In this document: one piece after another, positions 3,129-56,313 of the stretch | How positions within the stretch are numbered: the first letter of the stretch is position 1 | How the letters are laid out: each line of letters begins with the position of its first letter | From: a virus | Taxonomy: Duplodnaviria > Heunggongvirae > Uroviricota > Caudoviricetes | IMG/VR virus record: IMGVR_UViG_3300028805_000083 | Coordinates: 37,572 to 101,571 of that record | Reading direction: 5' to 3' (one strand) | Length of the DNA: 64,000 bases | The notes under the pieces: model-generated | What the model saw: only the letters and a program-made list of their open reading frames with translations | Database searches by the model: none | What the model was told of the DNA's origin: nothing | Position numbers and translations under genes: made by a program

Positions 3129-3322
3129 AACATCAATTCAACTTTTAATATTGTTTAACATTTTTATTGAGGCTCGTATTGGATTTGCACCAATGTAGAA
3201 CGTTTTTGCAGAACGACCGCTTACTACTCACGCAACGAGCCATTTAAAGAAGCCTAGTCTATTTTCACAAACGGAACTAGGCAATGTACCAATCAATATG
3301 AACAATTTTTTTTTTAAGATAA

Positions 3323-4968: not shown

Positions 4969-5613
4969 TCAAAATGGCAATCTTCCTACAAAAGCTCCCA
5001 TAGTCTCTATGTCGTAGATATATTGGCTATCTTCCATTAGGGTAGACCATCTATAATTGGTCTCAAGATTAATTTTAAATTTTTCTATATAAGCTTTCCT
5101 TAGTGCTATGTAGGCATTATGCAGCATTTCGTTTACTTGCCCCATCACGCCAATCAAAGATACCCATGTAGAGTGTTTACCATTCAATGTTATTTTCAAT
5201 ACCACCCTATTGTCACTAAGGAAATTAAACTGAAATGCCATTTTTCCAGAATTAATCTGTTTTTCCATGAATTTCTTTGAAATCTCATTCAGTCCAATCT
5301 CCACTTCTTCAAAACACTCAATTTCATTTCCATCAAGAGAGTACAAAGACCCCATGTCATCGTATAGTGCTGTCTTTGAAAATGCTTGATATATTCTACC
5401 AAGTGTGAATCTTTTGGAAGCCTCATACGGAGATACATTTGGAATTATCATATTACCATTGCTATCATATGTAGAAATAGTATATGAGCCATATCCATAC
5501 ATGTTGCTGTTTCCATAATAAGCTGCGCCATTATACCAACTAGGCATTTGAAATAGTTGCTTTACTGGTATTTCTTTCGTCAGTTTATAAAAATGATTCT
5601 CAATAAATTCCAT
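4969..5613 (-). CDS. hypothetical protein
   Basis: ORF of 214 aa. Confidence 0.4.
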   Translation of the reverse strand: MEFIENHFYKLTKEIPVKQLFQMPSWYNGAAYYGNSNMYGYGSYTISTYDSNGNMIIPNVSPYEASKRFTLGRIYQAFSKTALYDDMGSLYSLDGNEIECFEEVEIGLNEISKKFMEKQINSGKMAFQFNFLSDNRVVLKITLNGKHSTWVSLIGVMGQVNEMLHNAYIALRKAYIEKFKINLETNYRWSTLMEDSQYIYDIETMGAFVGRLPF

Positions 5614-6154
5614 AACCGTCTAATGATTTGTATAGTTTGGTTTTAGTTAGCAAATTTTTTCTAGCTTCTCTATACGCTAGTCTCAAGCCATTCATTTTAT
5701 TCTTTGCCATTGCTTCTCCAACACCAGTGTTTTTAAAACCAACTACTGTAACCTTACAGCTATATAGAATCATGCTACCAATTTTTACTGATGGGATGAC
5801 AGAAACAGAACAACGGCACTCTTCACGCAACTTAGTTGCAATTGGCTCGATGTCTGAATTGTCAAATGGCACTTCCTCGAATTCATATCCACTAGCATCA
5901 CTAATGAATACAAGAGTCTCCATAGCATCTATCAATGCGCCATCTGTAGAACAACGGTATATATGACCCTCGTAGAATAATCCAACACAAGAATCAGCAT
6001 ATTCGTCATAGTTGTAATACCTTGGAAACCTACCACCCCTTTTATACTCCCTACCATAACTGTTTCCAAATACGGTAGAAATAAAAGAATTGATAGATTC
6101 GCTTGATGTATCTTTTTTCTTTATGCAGAGATAAAATTTTCCAGCTTTAAACAT
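5600..6154 (-). CDS. hypothetical protein
   Basis: ORF of 184 aa. Confidence 0.4.
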   Translation of the reverse strand: MFKAGKFYLCIKKKDTSSESINSFISTVFGNSYGREYKRGGRFPRYYNYDEYADSCVGLFYEGHIYRCSTDGALIDAMETLVFISDASGYEFEEVPFDNSDIEPIATKLREECRCSVSVIPSVKIGSMILYSCKVTVVGFKNTGVGEAMAKNKMNGLRLAYREARKNLLTKTKLYKSLDGYGIY

Positions 6155-17896: not shown

Positions 17897-17932
17897 TAAA
17901 GACCCTAATAAATTATATTGTTAGGGTCTTCA
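17897..17932 (-). terminator. Strong hairpin at the 3' end of the CCA-enzyme gene
   Basis: AAGACCCTAA...TTAGGGTCTT is a 10-bp stem flanked by A/T-rich sequence. Confidence 0.45.
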
Positions 17933-19319
17933 ATTTATTTTCAACAATTTCAAATGCTTCATCCTTGGTCATATTAGTATTCTCAAAGTAGGCATCTTTA
18001 ACTGCTTCTAGTAGTATACCAACAAGAGGTGAAGACTTGATACTAAACTCTTTCATAATGTCGTTTCCAGATATTGGAAGTTTGACATTTGCAGCTTTTT
18101 CAGCATCTTCCATTTCCTCAATCCTATTAAGAATATCAAGAACTTGTCTCTTTTTCTTACCATAGGTACAATGCAAGTTGTTGGCATTCATTAAGTCAAC
18201 TGTTGCACCAAGGTTTTCTCCAGTGGTATTAATAAATTTTCTAATCTTCTTATCTGGGGGCATTACACCATCAGCGTAAAGCGCAAATGCTCTATGATAC
18301 TTAATGGCTGTTTCTACCGTATTGATAACGTAGTTAGGGAACTTCATTTTCTTGAGGTCATCAGCAGCAACTTCAGCACTAAACTTATCAGGATTAACAT
18401 CCCTTCTACTATCAGTGATAACCTTACCAACATCATGGAACAATGCCGCTAGGCGATTATCAACATATGGCTGTACAGTATCTAACACATTCATGGTGTG
18501 GTCGAAAGTAGAAACCATTGGATTCTTTGACTCATAAGCATAAGTTGTGTCATATATGTCTGGCATTACCCTATGCAATATACCACAGTAGTACATCTTA
18601 CGAATACCGATACTAGGTTTCTCACAAAGCAGTATCTTTGATATTTCTTCACTGATACGCTCTTGAGATATAATGCTTATTCGATGCGCATTCTTAACCA
18701 TACCTAGCCATGTGTTTTTCTCAATTCCCCAACCGAATCTAGTTGAGAATCGAATAACACGCAATATACGCAATGGGTCATCATTGAATGTAACATCTGG
18801 GTCGGTTGGCGTTTTAATAACTTGATTAACAAGGTCATCCAATCCATTGTTGTAGTCATGAATCTTCTCCGTGCTAATGTTGTAATACAAAGAATTGATT
18901 GTAAGGTCACGCCTCTTAGCGTCCTCTTGAATCGTACCATACACGGTATCTGGATTTCTGCTCTCCTTATGATACTGCTCCTTACGAGTCTGAACACACT
19001 CAACCTCAATGTCTTTCAGCTCATCGTTTTTATAAAGCTGAAATTTAGCAGTTCCATAAGTTTCAAACAGAACAGGATTACTTCCTTGTACAAAACATTG
19101 ATGCTTCATTGTCATGTAGTTTGCAAATAGCATTCCTCCGTTTTTAATGTCTACACAAATATCGACATCTTTACAAGGTATTTTTAATAGAAGGTCTCTT
19201 ACACATCCACCAACTAGAAATACATGGTTTTCAAATGCAGTACCTTTGATTGATTCTTGTATTAGTTTAACTAATTTTTTAATCCTTTCGTCAGCGTTTT
19301 TAAACAATATTTCGTTCAT
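17913..19319 (-). CDS. cca: CCA-adding tRNA nucleotidyltransferase with an HD domain
   Basis: HVFLVGGCVRDLLLKIPCKDVDICVD is the pol-beta nucleotidyltransferase head (GGxVRD...DxD). LAALFHDVGK is an HD motif. 468 aa. Confidence 0.8.
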   Translation of the reverse strand: MNEILFKNADERIKKLVKLIQESIKGTAFENHVFLVGGCVRDLLLKIPCKDVDICVDIKNGGMLFANYMTMKHQCFVQGSNPVLFETYGTAKFQLYKNDELKDIEVECVQTRKEQYHKESRNPDTVYGTIQEDAKRRDLTINSLYYNISTEKIHDYNNGLDDLVNQVIKTPTDPDVTFNDDPLRILRVIRFSTRFGWGIEKNTWLGMVKNAHRISIISQERISEEISKILLCEKPSIGIRKMYYCGILHRVMPDIYDTTYAYESKNPMVSTFDHTMNVLDTVQPYVDNRLAALFHDVGKVITDSRRDVNPDKFSAEVAADDLKKMKFPNYVINTVETAIKYHRAFALYADGVMPPDKKIRKFINTTGENLGATVDLMNANNLHCTYGKKKRQVLDILNRIEEMEDAEKAANVKLPISGNDIMKEFSIKSSPLVGILLEAVKDAYFENTNMTKDEAFEIVENKLKTLTI

Positions 19320-49727: not shown

Positions 49728-49812
49728 AAGCCGTAGTGAGCGTAGTGGGATTCGAACCCACGTAGCTTATTGCCATAATAGTTTTAGAGACTATCCCAAT
49801 CGACCTCTCTGG
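49728..49812 (-). tRNA. Type-II suppressor tRNA with anticodon CUA (reads UAG), tRNA-Tyr-like and supF-like
   Basis: Acceptor GAGCGTA/TACGCTC is a 7/7 match. D stem CCA/TGG with an 11-nt loop. Anticodon arm ATAGT-CTCTAAA-ACTAT gives C34-U35-A36. The variable arm is 16 nt. T arm GTGGG-TTCGAAT-CCCAC. The bacterial tRNA-Tyr loop CUGUAAA differs by a single G-to-C change. Confidence 0.7.
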
Positions 49813-49829
49813 CATACGCTCATTATCTC

Positions 49830-51139: not shown

Positions 51140-51263
51140 CAGGGACTGACGGACTCGAACCGCCATCTTTTATTAACAGTTAAAGGTACAATCTGTTCCG
51201 AAGTCGAGACTGTGTGATTCCTTAAATCGCAACAAACCACTCTTACCATTGAGCTAAATCCCT
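51140..51263 (-). tRNA. tRNA gene carrying an intervening sequence of about 50 nt
   Basis: 5' half AGGGATT-TA-GCTC-AATGGTAA-GAGT and 3' half GGCGG-TTCGAGT-CCGTC-AGTCCCT have complementary acceptors but lie 124 nt apart. The insert contains a 25-nt element that also occurs at 15551-15575. Confidence 0.5.
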
Positions 51264-51610
51264 ATATAAATACAAAAGGCTGAGAATTTGACCTTATTGT
51301 TGATGCCTTTATGCAAGCGTTGGAACTTGTTCTTCACACGCCACCTTACGATGGACGTAGACACCATGCACGATGATTTTGTGAAAACCACCTAAACTCT
51401 TACTGATTTAAACCTTTCGGTACAGAATCATAACATTCATTTCACCACCAAGCTGTTGCGCATTTTGACTAGATGCCTCCAGTCCACTCAGATGACTACT
51501 TTTACTAGTTTGTTGGATTCCTTGCGAGTCACCAACCACTTCATATTACAGAAGTATAAGTGCATTTTATCTGCTCAGTGTCGCACACTTTCGCTTTTAA
51601 TCTTTATTTT

Positions 51611-51688
51611 AAAAGACGACAGGATTCGAACCTGTAACACTCGGCTCCTCAAGCTGATGCTCTACCGTTGAGTTACACTTTCACAACT
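51611..51688 (-). tRNA. tRNA-like gene, anticodon possibly GAG, with mismatched stems
   Basis: T arm ACAGG-TTCGAAT-CCTGT and D arm ACTC-AACGGTA-GAGC. The anticodon arm is imperfect. Confidence 0.4.
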
Positions 51689-52400
51689 AATGGAAGACGA
51701 GGTGCGACTCTTAGAATCTGTGTCTTTTGGACACAGCCCACTAAATCGCCTTCCTATGCCAAACCCACCACAAGTTTGTAGCACTAATAAACACTCTCAG
51801 CCTTACGGTTCTTAACGCTTATAACATTCATCATGCCTTTCACGTTAAGACAAATGTGTATTTGAACCCAACACGCCAACTGGTGATTATTGTATCAAGT
51901 CCCACAAGGTAATCTATTGTATCACTACTCAACCCAAGCTGTTAACCTAGGTAGCATACTACACGATTTTACCTACCGAACAGTATACCGTACCTTGTGC
52001 TTTTCAGTGAAATGCCCTAGTTTCCTAGAACATCTGAGTCGGCTTAGTTGTCAATATCCGTCTCATTTATCCCATCACTGGATTATCCTTCCATCTGGCC
52101 ACGAAAGCTGACCATTAGCCTATGCCTTTTGCAAGACATTTCCTCTTGGAATCGGCTTATTCTTTTGGGTATTATTTCCATTTTGGTTTATTATAATCGG
52201 TAAACTGCTTCCTCTTACGAGGTGGGTCTATATCCCAAGCTCCGATTTTTTACACCATTATAGAATACCTTCCCCAATGCATTGTTTTCTAGTACACGTT
52301 CTCTAGAATTATGGCTTCCGAAGTCACCATAGTCATGGATTGTTTAACCACATAAAACCCACTTTTACCGTTGTCTACAGCACGAAAAGGCATATCTCGT

Positions 52401-52542
52401 TGGTTAGAGCAGATTTGCACTGCTGAAGCTTCCGAAGAAACACATCAAGCACGAACTTGATGTCCATTTGTCTACATCGTCATTACTGACGTTCTCCTCT
52501 GGTACTAACCAAAAGGTGGTTTTTTAACTTGTCCACCACAAG
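52401..52542 (-). ncRNA. Candidate structured ncRNA, copy 1 of 2
   Basis: A paralog of about 142 nt of 52702-52843. It has a terminal 8-bp closing helix, an internal C(UUCG)G hairpin and a CATCAAG...CTTGATG hairpin. A GGTGG...CCACC hairpin plus a U-run lies at its minus-strand 5' side. Confidence 0.4.
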
Positions 52543-52701
52543 GTATAGTGTGTAGTATTGTAAAGGCTAATTCATTTTACAGAACTAATTTAATGGTAAA
52601 GGACATCTGCTATGTTTCATACAGTTGTGTGTTTGTCGCAACCTCACTTTCCTCGCCAACCTTTACTGCCGATTGCACCTGAGCGTTTATACTACATTTG
52701 T

Positions 52702-52843
52702 TGGTAGAGCTAGATTTGCACTAGCGAAGACTCCGAAGAGCCACATCAAGCACGAACTTGATGCCCATTTGTCTACATCGTCATTGCTGACGTTCTCCTC
52801 TGGTATCTACCAAAAGGTGGTTTTTTAACTTGTCCACCACAAG
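52702..52843 (-). ncRNA. Candidate structured ncRNA, copy 2 of 2
   Basis: About 85% identical to copy 1. The terminal helix shows compensatory changes (TTGGTAGA/TCTACCAA against TTGGTTAG/CTAACCAA). Confidence 0.4.
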
Positions 52844-52861
52844 AATAGTTGCGGGAGTCAG

Positions 52862-52936
52862 GCTCGAACTGACACGATGCGTTTCTAGCGTAGAAGGCTT
52901 ATGAGACCCACATGTTACCATTACATTATCCCGCTA
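52862..52936 (-). tRNA. tRNA-like gene with a CUCAUAA loop (CAU) and an extended variable region
   Basis: Acceptor AGCGGGA/TCCCGCA is a 6/7 match. D arm ATGT-AATGGTA-ACAT. T arm GTCAG-TTCGAGC-CTGAC. Confidence 0.45.
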
Positions 52937-55859: not shown

Positions 55860-55934
55860 TATAAATATTGTTTTATGTTCAAAAAGTACGGAAACGTTTT
55901 AATACATTAAGTTGCTCTACCTAACTGAGCTACA

Positions 55935-56000
55935 AGGAGTATAAACCCCTCGATGGGATTCGAACCCATGACCTACTGCTTACAAGGCTTATTAAAAAAC
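55935..56000 (-). other. Juxtaposed tRNA halves in permuted order, a 3' half then a 5' half. See findings.
   Basis: On the minus strand the sequence reads ...ATGGG-TTCGAAT-CCCAT-CGAGGGG-T-TTATA-CTCCTTG-TA-GCTC-AGTTAGGTA-GAGC-A-ACTTA.... The strands CGAGGGG and CTCCTTG are complementary, with two G-U pairs. Confidence 0.4.
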
Positions 56001-56313
56001 TATTGCTGTCTGTTTCCTTAGCGCTTGAGGTCGGATTTGCACCTTCTGTCTCTGTCTCCATCTTTCGACTTTGTACCAGCGTTTATACTACTTAACACTT
56101 CTCAAGCATGTTTCGCCTACTGTACCCATGTGATAACTTGAACGATGTATCACATCAAGCCATCGCAGACTTGTCTTACATTAACGTAGTTAAGACCAAT
56201 ATACGGCATTCTTAACCTAAAGTATGCTTACGAGCACGTTACAGATATTCATTGTTTTGTATGTCTTGCAGATAAGCCTTTAACGTGCAAAAGGCTATTT
56301 TTCAGTATATCTA

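Follow-up and report, generated by a model that had tools for sequence, protein, structure and literature searches.

In the window, that is, the whole 64,000-nt stretch of viral DNA analysed here, two similar RNA elements, copy A and copy B, lie on the minus strand between a tRNA-Met gene and a tRNA-Leu gene. The preliminary description had called the region 51690-52860 tRNA-flanked and free of credible ORFs; both flanking tRNAs were recovered on the minus strand, and the longest ORF within the region reaches 73 aa from a TTG start. The 326-aa ORF upstream of tRNA-Met gave weak zinc-finger matches only.

52848..52935, minus: tRNA-Met (CAU), first gene of the unit (ARAGORN; Rfam tRNA, 42.2 bits)
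52700-52843, minus: copy B, pseudoknot plus core, at a spacing of 301 nt to copy A
52543..52699, minus: spacer between the copies, spacer RNA S1, conserved in loci L009, L013, L015 and L018
52399-52542, minus: copy A, pseudoknot plus core, 85% identical to copy B
51754-51277: GOLLD-like match, 645 nt downstream of copy A
51611-51682, minus: tRNA-Leu (ARAGORN)
17913-19319: ORF for a CCA-adding enzyme, with PolyA_pol head and RNA-binding domains

A repeat search of the window returned the copies at an ungapped identity of 91% over 132 nt with a spacing of 301 nt, and an alignment that counts in the pseudoknot hairpin gave 127 identical positions of 149 (85%), in keeping with the values of about 85% and about 300 bp given beforehand. 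The unit of about 142 nt described at that stage is indeed structured, but it is composed of two modules, a predicted 28-nt pseudoknot and a 114-nt core. The cores were placed by nhmmer at 52814-52700 (copy B) and 52513-52399 (copy A), and the covariance model R1 scores them at 147 bits (E 3e-45) and 142.4 bits, respectively, with E about 1e-44.

The helices noticed earlier are all present on the minus strand. The closing helix, reported to carry compensating changes, reads UUGGUAGA/UCUACCAA in one copy and UUGGUUAG/CUAACCAA in the other, the stem of the covarying C(UUCG)G hairpin reads GGCUC/GAGUC and, as P4 of copy A, GUUUC/GAAGC, and the CATCAAG-N6-CTTGATG hairpin is found as CAUCAAG-UUCGUG-CUUGAUG. 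Two further helices had been overlooked: CGUCA-G(C/U)AA-UGACG, and a T-arm reading GCUAG-UGCAAAU-CUAGC or, in copy A, AGCAG-UGCAAAU-CUGCU. Copy A also has the acceptor stem UGGUUAG/CUAACCA, the P2 loop GUAA, and an A26-U44 pair replacing G.U. Between the 114-nt cores, 18 positions differ; 16 of these form eight double compensatory changes, one converts G.U to A-U, and one falls in the GNRA loop, with no pair broken. The minimum-free-energy fold of each core, folded by itself, is this same structure with two or three additional pairs. The layout of the core is as follows.

52700..52813, minus: copy B tRNA-like core, 114 nt (placed by R1, nhmmer and covariation of every helix)
52813, minus: U(-1)
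52812-52806, minus: acceptor 5' strand
52805-52804, minus: U8 and A9
52803-52801, minus: D-stem CCA
52800-52793, minus: conserved GAGGAGAA
52792-52779, minus: P2, inserted hairpin with GCAA loop
52778-52768, minus: conserved AUGUAGACAAA
52767-52765, minus: D-stem UGG
52764-52743, minus: P3, 'anticodon' helix, with UUCGUG cap at 52756-52751
52742-52729, minus: P4, variable arm with UUCG loop
52728-52726, minus: UUC
52725-52709, minus: T-arm, with T-loop UGCAAAU at 52720-52714
52708-52702, minus: acceptor 3' strand
52701 and 52700, minus: A73 and C74
52399..52512, minus: copy A tRNA-like core, 114 nt, with the copy B layout shifted by 301 nt

A conserved family with a tRNA fold

At least 84 distinct full-length homologues, a lower bound for the metagenomes, were identified in huge-phage and metagenome contigs, and orthologous subtypes of the element reappear across different contigs. 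All six helices covary, with 99% of cells paired compared with about 40% in slid controls. In the MAFFT alignment A1, 95.6% of cells are paired (34-44% in slid controls) and double changes occur at 22 of 34 pairs; in the model-based alignment A3 of 36 distinct homologues the values are 99.1% and 23 of 34 pairs, and although a model-fitted alignment tilts these counts towards structure, A1 agrees with them. The D-stem covaries in A3 (C-G in 28 sequences, G-C in 8), and none of 500 shuffles attained the observed pairing and covariation values for the 36 homologues. The larger alignment called for in the preliminary description thus upholds the helices. One near-invariant pair is G.U in 35 of the 36 sequences and A-U in the remaining one, and many other cells are also G.U; since these would read A.C on the opposite strand, the minus strand is the functional one. 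GNRA and UUCG loops likewise occur on the minus strand only.

The suggestion that the two paralogous structured RNAs represent a functional fold rather than a recent duplication is borne out by covariation across the homologues, and a selected RNA fold, with helices maintained by compensatory change, is supported at the level of sequence. That the copies are functionless, as decaying tRNA pseudogenes or a recent tandem duplication, might be suggested by their invisibility to tRNA finders and by the presence of two similar copies 301 nt apart. This covariation already contradicts such an origin; moreover, all 18 inter-copy differences keep the structure, the 84 distinct members preserve six helices by compensation together with long invariant single-stranded stretches, and orthologous subtypes recur on different contigs, leaving almost no likelihood to this explanation.

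The fold is that of a class-II tRNA cloverleaf, with a 7-bp acceptor stem, a 3-bp D-stem plus G13.A22, a long variable arm, a 5-bp T-stem, and a 7-nt T-loop of sequence U-G-C-A-A-A-U closed by G53-C61. Because of this cloverleaf the elements are taken to be tRNA derivatives. The acceptor stem comprises seven pairs plus U(-1):A73, five of them covarying, and all five pairs of the T-stem covary; G13 changes to A together with A22 to C in four sequences. In all 84 distinct members, U8, A9, A14, G15, A21, C48, C56, A58, A73, and C74 are invariant, while G53 is retained in 79, U54 in 79, and C61 in 80. The elements therefore keep the core and elbow nucleotides of tRNA (U8, A14, G15, A21, C48, G53-C61, U54, C56, and A58), by which they qualify as tRNA-like in their tertiary positions, and the elbow contacts are predicted to form. 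Most tRNAs of the window, like the elements, end in N73 followed by C.

The relationship to tRNA is also evident from the matches of R1. Weak matches, at 17-37 bits over the full model, were tRNA genes in all of the 18 cases, of 20, that were checked against gene calls, and include the tRNA-Cys of the window, the tRNA-Met of L014 (37 bits, with each arm matched to its counterpart), and T4 tRNA-Ser (31 bits). An unusual elbow is held in common as well. Among the genuine tRNAs of these loci, the nine with G55 (T-loop UGCAAAU or UGCAAUC) all have the D-loop GUAGU, not GG, while GG is found in 134 of the 137 with U55. The elements carry G55 in 83 of 84 members and UAG in the D-loop, and this rare A18/G55 variant is common to them and the tRNA-Met genes of the same phages. 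Taken together, the elements very probably encode a tRNA-derived, L-shaped RNA.

The departures from tRNA are equally consistent across the family. A hairpin is inserted in the D-loop, bordered by the invariant GAGGAGAAC and GAUGUAGACAAA, and the acceptor end is unusual, with U1-A72 and G2-C71 invariant and U(-1) able to pair with A73. In 70 of 84 members, both window copies included, the place of the 7-nt anticodon loop is taken by a 10-nt NN-UUCGUG-NN segment. Its NN positions form two further, covarying pairs below the UUCGUG cap, so that a helix of 7 bp capped by 6 nt stands where a tRNA has a stem of 5 bp and a loop of 7 nt. A canonical anticodon arm (5-bp stem, 7-nt loop, U33, anticodon) is thus lacking in the window copies. 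The other 14 members have a 7-nt loop with GUA at positions 34-36 in every case. In 12 of these, position 33 is G and positions 32/38 covary as U-A or C-G around GGUAA, which points to a closed pentaloop; the remaining two, in L196, have the loop CUGUAAA, the anticodon loop of E. coli tRNA-Tyr, and with such loops part of the family might still decode.

These short loops bear on the alternative that the elements are working tRNAs of unusual shape, such as a six-armed tRNA-Tyr or a suppressor or frameshifting tRNA. Bacterial tRNA-Tyr has a class II body with A73, as the elements do; GUA occupies positions 34-36 in all 14 short-loop members, two of which have CUGUAAA, and tRNA-Tyr was called neither in the window nor at any other locus in the parts of the genomes examined. 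However, in 70 of 84 members, including the window copies, the tip would lie two base pairs too far out, and it lacks U33 and anticodon geometry, and 12 of the 14 short-loop members show G33 and Watson-Crick covariation at 32/38, which makes a decoding role highly improbable.

Standard tools do not recognise the family. ARAGORN made no call on the window copies or on the members from L002, L152, and L196, and the Rfam tRNA model (RF00005) did not match these elements at its gathering score of 29 bits or at E up to 10. The Rfam search that had been proposed for the copies was run, and no family matched them either at gathering scores or at E up to 10. A blastn search of one copy against GenBank phages gave chance-level matches only, megablast of 24 kb of the window gave no match, R1 detected no element at the Lak phage and FpV4 loci, and literature searches found no description of this element family. 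A pattern scan of genome contigs matched at least 120 loci, and the 120 listed were all chance matches, the pattern being loose and the result not implying absence from cultured genomes. On sequence grounds, the elements form a hitherto undescribed and well-conserved family of RNAs with the shape of a tRNA. The idea that UUCGUG is a motif common to the entire ncRNA island was rejected, because it is not enriched outside the elements (108 distinct occurrences compared with about 126 expected).

Genomic setting and a predicted upstream pseudoknot

The elements follow tRNA genes closely. All 118 nhmmer matches share the strand of the tRNAs and the tmRNA, and the order tRNA-Met followed by one or more elements recurs at many loci. 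An element begins 0-4 nt past a tRNA, with one exception at 9 nt past the tRNA-Phe of L152, or else 2-5 nt past another copy or directly past a pseudoknot. Runs of up to four copies spaced 2 nt apart occur, and one cluster has five copies; the array of the window also includes a phage tmRNA gene at a distance of 2 kb, on the same strand as the elements. In the window, tRNA-Met is followed by a 33-nt spacer containing the pseudoknot and then by copy B, compared with a spacing of 0-4 nt at other loci, and the pseudoknot of copy B starts (52843) 4 nt past the end of tRNA-Met called by ARAGORN (52848).

52816..52843, minus: copy B predicted 5' pseudoknot, 28 nt (24 distinct sequences, pairing compared with slid controls)
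52843-52840 with 52832-52829, minus: pseudoknot stem S1, CUUG with CAAG
52838-52834 with 52820-52816, minus: pseudoknot stem S2, GGUGG with CCACC
52828-52821, minus: A-rich loop UUAAAAAA
52815-52814, minus: UU, joint between pseudoknot and core
52515..52542, minus: copy A 5' pseudoknot, identical in sequence to that of copy B

The GGTGG-N13-CCACC hairpin with a U-run, noted in the preliminary description beside each copy, is present 5' of each, with UUUU as its U-run, and is better explained, from its sequence conservation, as one predicted stem of an H-type pseudoknot. The module is conserved across 24 distinct sequences, both window copies included, with 95.8% of cells paired compared with 28-56% in slid controls. 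One pair varies in each helix, without exception among the 24 sequences: in stem S1, C-G (10), G-C (7), and U-A (7), and in stem S2, G-C (21), U-A (2), and A-U (1). The covariation is confined to these two positions, the remaining pairs being invariant. The pseudoknot is absent from many members of the family, and L014 and L195 carry it between one element and the next.

A cis-acting role for the elements, as a terminator or attenuator, a riboswitch, a self-cleaving ribozyme, or a replication or packaging signal, might be read from the hairpin and U-run beside each copy and from the compact multi-helix fold with its invariant loops. The hairpin, however, lies 5' of the element and does not have the properties of an intrinsic terminator: the terminator scan did not report it (5-bp stem, 13-nt loop), and promoter and terminator counts were at shuffle level. 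Furthermore, no Rfam riboswitch or ribozyme matched even at E up to 10, the arrays have no downstream gene to regulate, and the G.U-bearing covariation shows that selection acts on the RNA, read from the strand of the tRNAs. A cis-acting role is accordingly extremely improbable. A Bacteroidetes -7 promoter box as the cause of the invariant 5' UUUG was likewise rejected, because tandem and pseudoknot-preceded copies lack the TAnn part.

Downstream of the cluster, a GOLLD-like match (RF02032, 45-99 bits, E down to 2e-25) is present in the window and at all seven of the other loci tested, with the last element 354-645 nt ahead of the start of the GOLLD model; the model does not match the copies themselves. 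Elements also occur away from GOLLD, in the gap between tRNA-Ile and tmRNA and after tRNA-Phe, tRNA-Val, and tRNA-Cys, and solitary elements exist with neither tRNAs nor GOLLD nearby. In the solitary unit of L002, a pseudoknot, an element, and a second tRNA-like RNA lie between a promoter motif of Bacteroidetes type and a strong terminator hairpin followed by a U-run, an arrangement that fits a dedicated stable-RNA gene. The small ORFs around solitary elements are uninformative, with the exception of a GNAT acetyltransferase two genes downstream. Within the window, spacer RNA S1 is a separate conserved structured module outside the repeat, and an 84-nt stretch of the spacer has a counterpart of 76% identity in Flavobacterium phage FpV4 and its relatives, beside the tmRNA gene of FpV4.

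The recurrent GOLLD-like match, found at eight of eight loci tested, raises the question of whether the elements are partners or modules of a GOLLD-like nanocage RNA, either as the variable 5' part of its transcript or as a tRNA-shaped cargo or cofactor. GOLLD RNAs have been described with a poorly conserved 5' region, tRNAs in the linker, and tRNA-Met upstream, and the authors offer the speculation that tRNAs are held or exposed by the cages (PMC12286853), all of which would suit such a partnership. Elements are nevertheless found far from GOLLD, including as solitary units, and at Lak phage loci that have a GOLLD-like core the flanking 8 kb on each side contain no element, making this relationship distinctly unlikely.

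The elements could instead serve as processing punctuation, their folds acting as RNase P and RNase Z signals that free the tmRNA, spacer RNA S1, or the GOLLD-like RNA and leave the element as a by-product. Mitochondrial tRNA punctuation and mascRNA at the MALAT1 3' end are precedents. The elements sit at exact boundaries (tRNA-Ile/element/tmRNA, element/S1/element, and the last element 354-645 nt ahead of the GOLLD model), and an A-rich pseudoknot 5' of a cleavage site resembles the protective structure left on MALAT1. Against punctuation, up to four copies stand 2 nt apart with nothing between them to free, ordinary tRNAs, plentiful in the array, would do equally well, and solitary units carry their own promoter and terminator. 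The D-loop extension is also invariant in 84 members and the UUCGUG cap is present in 70, features that cleavage signals do not need. We therefore regard punctuation as unlikely, if less so than a partnership with GOLLD.

Maturation, possible role, and known relatives

Overall, we consider it reasonably probable that each copy encodes a stable RNA of tRNA origin and tRNA shape that is no longer able to decode, and the best reading is that the elements are non-decoding tRNA mimics cut out by tRNA-processing enzymes. Maturation by the tRNA-processing machinery is a likely component of this reading, to judge from sequence and position. The elements would be transcribed inside a polycistronic tRNA precursor and released in the same way as the tRNAs next to them, with RNase P cutting at the 5' end and RNase Z or exonucleases generating the 3' end behind A73. 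The CCA-adding enzyme, one of which the phage encodes, would then add CCA, and the product would build up as an L-shaped RNA of about 115 nt. The unusual acceptor end (U1-A72, G2-C71, U(-1):A73) makes the site of RNase P cleavage uncertain. The A-rich pseudoknot would represent a separate module occupying the place of an upstream tRNA, probably capping the 3' end of the upstream fragment or helping to set the 5' cleavage site.

With regard to function, we tentatively propose a tRNA mimic or decoy in preference to punctuation or a partnership with GOLLD, and give this proposal a little less than an even chance of being right. Because the elements have no anticodon loop, their most likely mode of action would be to occupy some protein or RNA for which the body, elbow, or acceptor end of a tRNA is the recognition feature; they would then be a decoy, a sponge, or a dedicated ligand, with the conserved D-loop extension and the UUCGUG tip as possible specific contact surfaces. 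The ORFs next to the elements offered no hint as to such a partner. A decoy for anticodon nucleases is unlikely, since the anticodon loop itself has been lost. A simple sponge would not obviously require the diverged paralogues kept across genomes and in tandem arrays, which argues against it.

The closest analogue, by organisation, is the pair of T4 RNAs encoded by rnaD and rnaC (species 2 and species 1 RNA). These small stable RNAs of 119 and 139 nt lie head to tail directly after a tRNA gene, on the tRNA strand and with spacers of 1 and 6 nt, matching the genomic logic and size class of the elements. At its 3' end, rnaC has a T-arm of tRNA type (CCGGG-UUCGAAU-CCCGG) followed by a strand resembling the 3' side of an acceptor stem. 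The T4 RNAs are single-copy, while the elements form arrays of diverged paralogues with a whole cloverleaf core, a D-loop hairpin, and a UUCGUG cap, and R1 found no match, and thus no detectable homology, in rnaC or rnaD at E up to 10. The function of the T4 RNAs is still unknown (PMC9697503).

In their body plan the elements resemble class II tRNAs, tRNA-Tyr, and phage tRNA-Met, sharing the 7-bp acceptor, 3-bp D-stem, long variable arm, 5-bp T-stem, A73, and core nucleotides, and with 82-83-nt tRNA-Met genes they share the A18/G55 elbow and the motifs UUC-G(T-stem) and UAG.CAAA. They differ from class II tRNAs in the D-loop hairpin of 12-36 nt, the mostly lost anticodon loop, and the invariant U1-A72.

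Other non-decoding tRNA-like RNAs offer partial parallels. mascRNA, at the MALAT1 3' end, and the TMERs of murid herpesvirus 68, which are multi-copy viral genes, have tRNA-like folds excised by RNase P and RNase Z, and in MALAT1 an A-rich triple-helical structure lies immediately 5' of the RNase P site. An A-rich structure likewise precedes the tRNA-like fold of the elements, here as a predicted pseudoknot. Those RNAs are eukaryotic and unrelated in sequence, the structure here is a 28-nt H-type knot rather than an ENE triple helix, and processing is predicted. tmRNA has no D-stem but an ORF and four pseudoknots, and the tRNA-like structures of plant RNA viruses are 3'-terminal, aminoacylated parts of the genome with an upstream pseudoknot domain; like the elements, both combine an acceptor/T-arm mimic with non-tRNA extensions and pseudoknots directly 5', and the Rfam tmRNA model did not match the elements.

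In YrlA RNAs, the bacterial and phage Y RNA-like tRNA mimics, the 5' and 3' ends form a Ro-binding stem and the 'acceptor' is closed, whereas the ends of the elements form the acceptor stem. Rfam YrlA (RF02553) matched no element, its sole match being a chance-level one of 18 bits elsewhere in L152. YrlA is described as a non-coding RNA with a tRNA-like domain that, like the elements, has a T-arm, a D-arm, and a Levitt pair, and RNase P reportedly cleaves one of these RNAs, to which CCA is added if the acceptor stem has 7 bp (PMC4201824). The tRNA-Other of Bacillus cereus is a chromosomally encoded tRNA-like RNA with a non-canonical mode of charging and no ordinary decoding role (PMC5389517); unlike the elements, it comes from a lone bacterial gene close to a tRNA in size and has no additional arm.

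A bolder reading, which we hold to be unlikely, sees in the family a new class of six-armed tRNA mimics that arose from a class-II tRNA of the tRNA-Tyr/tRNA-Met type, is matured by the tRNA machinery, and has a specific job, with the pseudoknot as a MALAT1/mascRNA-like cap. If so, the elements might titrate a host factor that binds the body or acceptor end of tRNA, for instance a tRNA-targeting defence nuclease, a synthetase, or a modification enzyme, or might be the tRNA-shaped cargo or cofactor of the neighbouring GOLLD-like nanocage, and the pseudoknot would be a protective 3' cap made by RNase P cleavage.

The tRNA arrays of large phages are usually viewed as a supply of codons; the present family indicates that they also carry conserved, multi-copy RNAs that are tRNA-shaped, have acquired an additional arm, and would no longer decode, the genes of which escape tRNA finders and Rfam. 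With 84 sequences and covariation in all helices, the family provides a route to the 50-year-old question of what stable RNAs of the T4 rnaC/rnaD type are for, and gives GOLLD-like RNAs a defined, testable neighbour. It also documents a natural elbow swap from G18.U55 to A18.G55 and the tolerance of a hairpin inserted in the D-loop, which may be useful for tRNA engineering and for the annotation of phage tRNAs.

Structure of the two window copies

ARAGORN called fifteen tRNAs and a tmRNA in the window, every one on the minus strand, and an Rfam search added further tRNAs. The stretch 51690-52860, flanked by two tRNAs, had been described as free of credible ORFs, and its longest frame is indeed a 73-aa ORF with a TTG start.

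Features in and around 51690-52860
51277-51754, minus: GOLLD-like RNA (Rfam RF02032, 73.4 bits, E 2e-18, gathering score of 150 not reached)
51611-51682, minus: tRNA-Leu, one flank, embedded in the linker of the GOLLD-like RNA
52399-52512, minus: core of copy A (5' module 52515-52542)
52543-52699, minus: spacer RNA S1 between the copies, a separate conserved structured RNA
52700-52813, minus: core of copy B (5' module 52816-52843)
52848-52935, minus: tRNA-Met, other flank

The copies form a direct repeat of 132 nt with 91% ungapped identity at a spacing of 301 nt; identity is 85% over 149 nt when the flanking hairpin is counted. On the minus strand, each runs from a GGUGG-N13-CCACC hairpin through UUUU into a 114-nt core, closed by the helix UUGGUAGA/UCUACCAA in copy B and UUGGUUAG/CUAACCAA in copy A, within which lie four hairpins.

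Hairpins of the core
Hairpin 1: CGUCA-G(C/U)AA-UGACG
Hairpin 2: GCAUCAAG-UUCGUG-CUUGAUGU
Hairpin 3: GGCUC-UUCG-GAGUC; GUUUC/GAAGC in copy A
Hairpin 4: GCUAG-UGCAAAU-CUAGC; AGCAG/CUGCU in copy A

The GNRA and UUCG loops exist on the minus strand only. Eighteen positions differ between the cores: 16 pair up as eight double compensatory changes, another replaces G.U by A-U, the last falls within the GNRA loop, and no pair is broken. That the elements are pseudogenes is hardly credible. Folded by itself, each core adopts this structure at minimum free energy, bar two or three extra pairs, and a covariance model of the element finds only these two copies in the window, at 147 and 142 bits. The preliminary description had reported two copies about 85% identical and some 300 bp apart, an end helix with compensating changes, a covarying C(UUCG)G stem, a CATCAAG-N6-CTTGATG hairpin (hairpin 2 on the minus strand) and a GGTGG-N13-CCACC hairpin with a U-run beside each copy; since the repeat, hairpins, compensatory differences and fold were all recovered, it was right in every detail.

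Covariation across the family

The Rfam search that had been proposed as a check found no family matching the copies, whether at gathering scores or with E relaxed to 10, and blastn of a copy against GenBank phages gave chance matches only. Pattern scans of IMG/VR yielded 27 loci, and a third scan two more, on about 22 contigs, the largest of 412 kb; at least 32 further loci with true copies came from a metagenome scan. An nhmmer census of the collected loci (numbered with L) comprised at least 118 matches and at least 84 distinct full-length sequences.

Pairing in two alignments of the element
A1 (MAFFT), 31 sequences: 95.6% of cells paired (slid controls 34-44%); both-side changes in 22/34 pairs; observed values attained by 0/500 shuffles
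A3 (model-based), 36 distinct sequences: 99.1% of cells paired (slid controls 33-45%); both-side changes in 23/34 pairs; observed values attained by 0/500 shuffles

Covariation, counted per sequence and not per evolutionary event, is strong on both alignments, which bears out the earlier claim that it signals a functional RNA fold. A three-pair stem in A3 is CCA/UGG in 28 sequences and CGA/UCG in 8. One near-invariant pair is G.U in 35 of the 36 distinct sequences and A-U in the other, and many further G.U cells occur in A3; the RNA strand is therefore the minus strand of the window. Selection on the element thus acts at the RNA level.

The motif NUUG-(U/C)-GGUGG-A-CAAN-(A-rich, 8-10 nt)-CCACC-UU precedes the element in 31 of 92 distinct contexts. 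Among 24 distinct sequences, 95.8% of the cells of the proposed pseudoknot are paired, against 28-56% when slid; the first stem has C-G (10), G-C (7) or U-A (7) as its outer pair and the second stem G-C (21), U-A (2) or A-U (1) as its last, without exception. The terminator scan did not report the GGUGG/CCACC hairpin, which in L014 and L195 sits between two elements. The hairpin is probably part of a pseudoknot, likely rather than proven because the support consists of two covarying positions.

The tRNA core and its departures

Genuine tRNA genes also score 17-37 bits against the full-length element model, and 18 of 20 weak matches coincide with called tRNAs. Weak matches include the window tRNA-Cys (3169-3241, minus strand), four tRNA-Met (CAU) genes of 82-83 nt, tRNA-Lys, Val, Trp, Ser, Ile and suppressor tRNAs, and the class-II tRNA-Ser of phage T4 (31 bits). 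The alignments correspond arm for arm, and the combination of a three-pair D-stem and a long variable arm characterises class-II tRNAs.

Correspondence of element and tRNA
P1: acceptor stem, 7 bp, plus U(-1) opposite A73
UA: U8 A9
CCA/UGG: D-stem 10-12/23-25
Long hairpin P3: anticodon arm
UUCG hairpin P4: long variable arm
Last hairpin P5: T-arm

U8, A9, A14, G15, A21, C48, C56, A58, A73 and C74 are invariant in 84 elements; G53 and U54 are each retained in 79/84 and C61 in 80/84, and in four elements G13 and A22 are jointly replaced by A and C. The element is a tRNA derivative. Its T-loop, UGCAAAU, has G at position 55, where tRNAs carry U (elbow variant ...GUAGACAAA...; G55 in 83/84). A G55 T-loop is also present in nine genuine tRNAs of the element loci, namely the window tRNA-Cys and eight tRNA-Met (L014, L015, L016, L018, L196, L211), one of the latter reading UGCAAUC instead. 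GUAGU replaces the D-loop GG in all nine, whereas GG is found in 134 of 137 U55 tRNAs of these loci. The shift from G18.U55 to A18.G55 amounts to a tertiary covariation that has arisen naturally in the elbow of the tRNA, and the elements, carrying this variant of the local tRNAs, therefore descend from that local lineage.

The 5' part of the D-loop receives the P2 hairpin, of 12-36 nt and mostly GNRA-capped, between flanks invariant in the 84 elements (A14-G-G-A-G-A-A-C and G-A-U-G-U-A18-G19-A-C-A-A-A). In 70 of the 84, both window copies among them, two additional covarying pairs extend the five-pair anticodon stem, and the cap is UUCGUG, invariant but for one AUCGUG. ARAGORN and the Rfam tRNA model made no call on any copy, and the window copies cannot have a decoding role. 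The remaining 14 carry loops of seven nucleotides in which positions 34-36 read GUA; for 12 of them G33 and the covariation of positions 32/38 (U-A or C-G) suggest a closed GGUAA pentaloop.

Short-loop elements with a 5-bp stem
L196 1918-2032 and 3505-3616, minus: 7-nt loop CUGUAAA
L152 25-140, 528-643 and 2027-2142, minus: 7-nt loop YGGUAAR

CUGUAAA is the anticodon loop of bacterial tRNA-Tyr, and the GUA, A73 and class-II body hint at a tRNA-Tyr-like ancestor. No tRNA-Tyr was called in any element locus, so some elements might be, or descend from, an extra-armed tRNA-Tyr. For the family at large, odd but still-decoding tRNAs are a very improbable reading.

Array context and proposed role

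All copies lie on the same strand as the tRNAs and tmRNA.

Arrangements of elements
tRNA-Ile, element after 0-1 nt, tmRNA
tRNA-Met, one to five elements (2-nt gaps in runs of as many as four; any fifth copy usually beyond a spacer)
Element after tRNA-Phe, tRNA-Val or tRNA-Cys

In the window tRNA-Met is followed by the probable pseudoknot and copy B, then by copy A after a 186-nt spacer (measured from one nhmmer match to the other, including the copy A pseudoknot). S1 in this spacer, for which Rfam gave no match, is kept in L009, L013, L015 and L018. Flavobacterium phage FpV4 and its relatives share 84 nt of it at 76% identity, some 420 nt upstream of their tmRNA gene, and one helix is fully compensated between the two lineages (GCAAUC/GGUUGC versus CUGUGG/CCACAG). 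Another spacer module, S2 (about 190 nt), is present in L012, L013 and L211.

In L003, L004, L009, L012, L014, L028 and L196, too, the element cluster has a GOLLD-like match (45-99 bits) downstream of it, and the 354-645 nt from the last element to the GOLLD model start could represent the variable 5' region of GOLLD. That the elements are partners of this RNA is rather improbable.

Other tRNA-like genes were observed. Directly 3' of the GOLLD-like RNA is a tRNA gene with a ~50-nt insertion (51140-51263, minus; Rfam tRNA 41 bits, no ARAGORN call), and tRNA matches of 121-126 nt likewise follow GOLLD in L003, L009, L014, L028 and L196. A CUA-anticodon tRNA (amber suppressor, labelled tRNA-Pyl by ARAGORN; 49736-49821, minus), found also in many related loci, suggests that this phage clade recodes TAG, something already described for Lak phages. 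T-loop-like motifs GTTCGANTC or GTGCAAATC outside called tRNAs point to likely additional uncalled or unusual tRNA-like genes.

T-loop-like motif sites
55910-56050, 63992, 61658, 61113, 53927, 44886, 44640 and 15377, minus
55910-55975, minus: T-arm and acceptor 3' strand, followed 5 nt on by an apparent acceptor 5' strand and D-arm

Solitary units exist elsewhere in the same genomes, and pure processing punctuation is an unlikely role for the elements. IMG/VR contig 3300021256_000001 holds both a window-like locus, L022, and, far from the tRNA array, a solitary unit in L002 (L002 positions 5200-5950, minus), which runs from a promoter motif TTTG-N20-TATCTTTG (Bacteroidetes-type, judged by eye against the consensus) through a ~135-nt leader, pseudoknot and element to a second non-canonical tRNA-like RNA (5444-5520, minus; tRNA-Sec 17.7 bits, not significant; 3' end CUAUCAAC) and a strong hairpin with U-run, read by eye as a putative terminator. 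The sequence downstream of this element also follows solitary elements of L007, L008, L010, L019 and L251. A cis-regulatory element is scarcely conceivable. Likeness to Prevotella Lak phages and Flavobacterium phages, with the promoter motif, points to Bacteroidota hosts.

Architectural parallels are offered by mascRNA/MALAT1, herpesvirus TMERs, the tRNA-like domain of tmRNA, and plant-virus tRNA-like structures with upstream pseudoknots. The closest analogue is the pair of T4 stable RNAs rnaD and rnaC, which follow tRNA-Arg with spacers of 1 and 6 nt, rnaC ending, like the elements, in a tRNA-type T-arm; their function is still unknown (PMC9697503). No homology of the elements to them is detectable. 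YrlA is permuted in topology, and the elements do not match its model. YrlA is another bacterial and phage tRNA mimic (PMC4201824). The elements are filed with phage tRNA-cluster stable RNAs and tRNA mimics.

The analysis demonstrates the fold, tRNA core, anticodon-loop loss and array context of the elements. By established tRNA biology, they would be co-transcribed with tRNAs and cut at the 5' end by RNase P, whose main determinants are the acceptor/T-arm helix and an intact elbow; the 3' end would be cut after A73 and CCA added. Most window tRNAs end in N73 and C, as the elements do (A73-C74), and the absence of an encoded CCA from most tRNA genes here fits a putative phage enzyme.

Candidate CCA-adding enzyme
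17913-19319, minus: CCA-adding enzyme or poly(A) polymerase homologue, 468 aa, with PolyA_pol head, RNA-binding domain and faint HD match

The mature element would accumulate as a stable L-shaped RNA and may act as a tRNA mimic engaging a factor that reads the tRNA body, elbow or acceptor end; the UUCGUG tip, together with the D-loop extension and the U1-A72/G2-C71/A73/C74 end, both invariant, may provide its specific contact surfaces.
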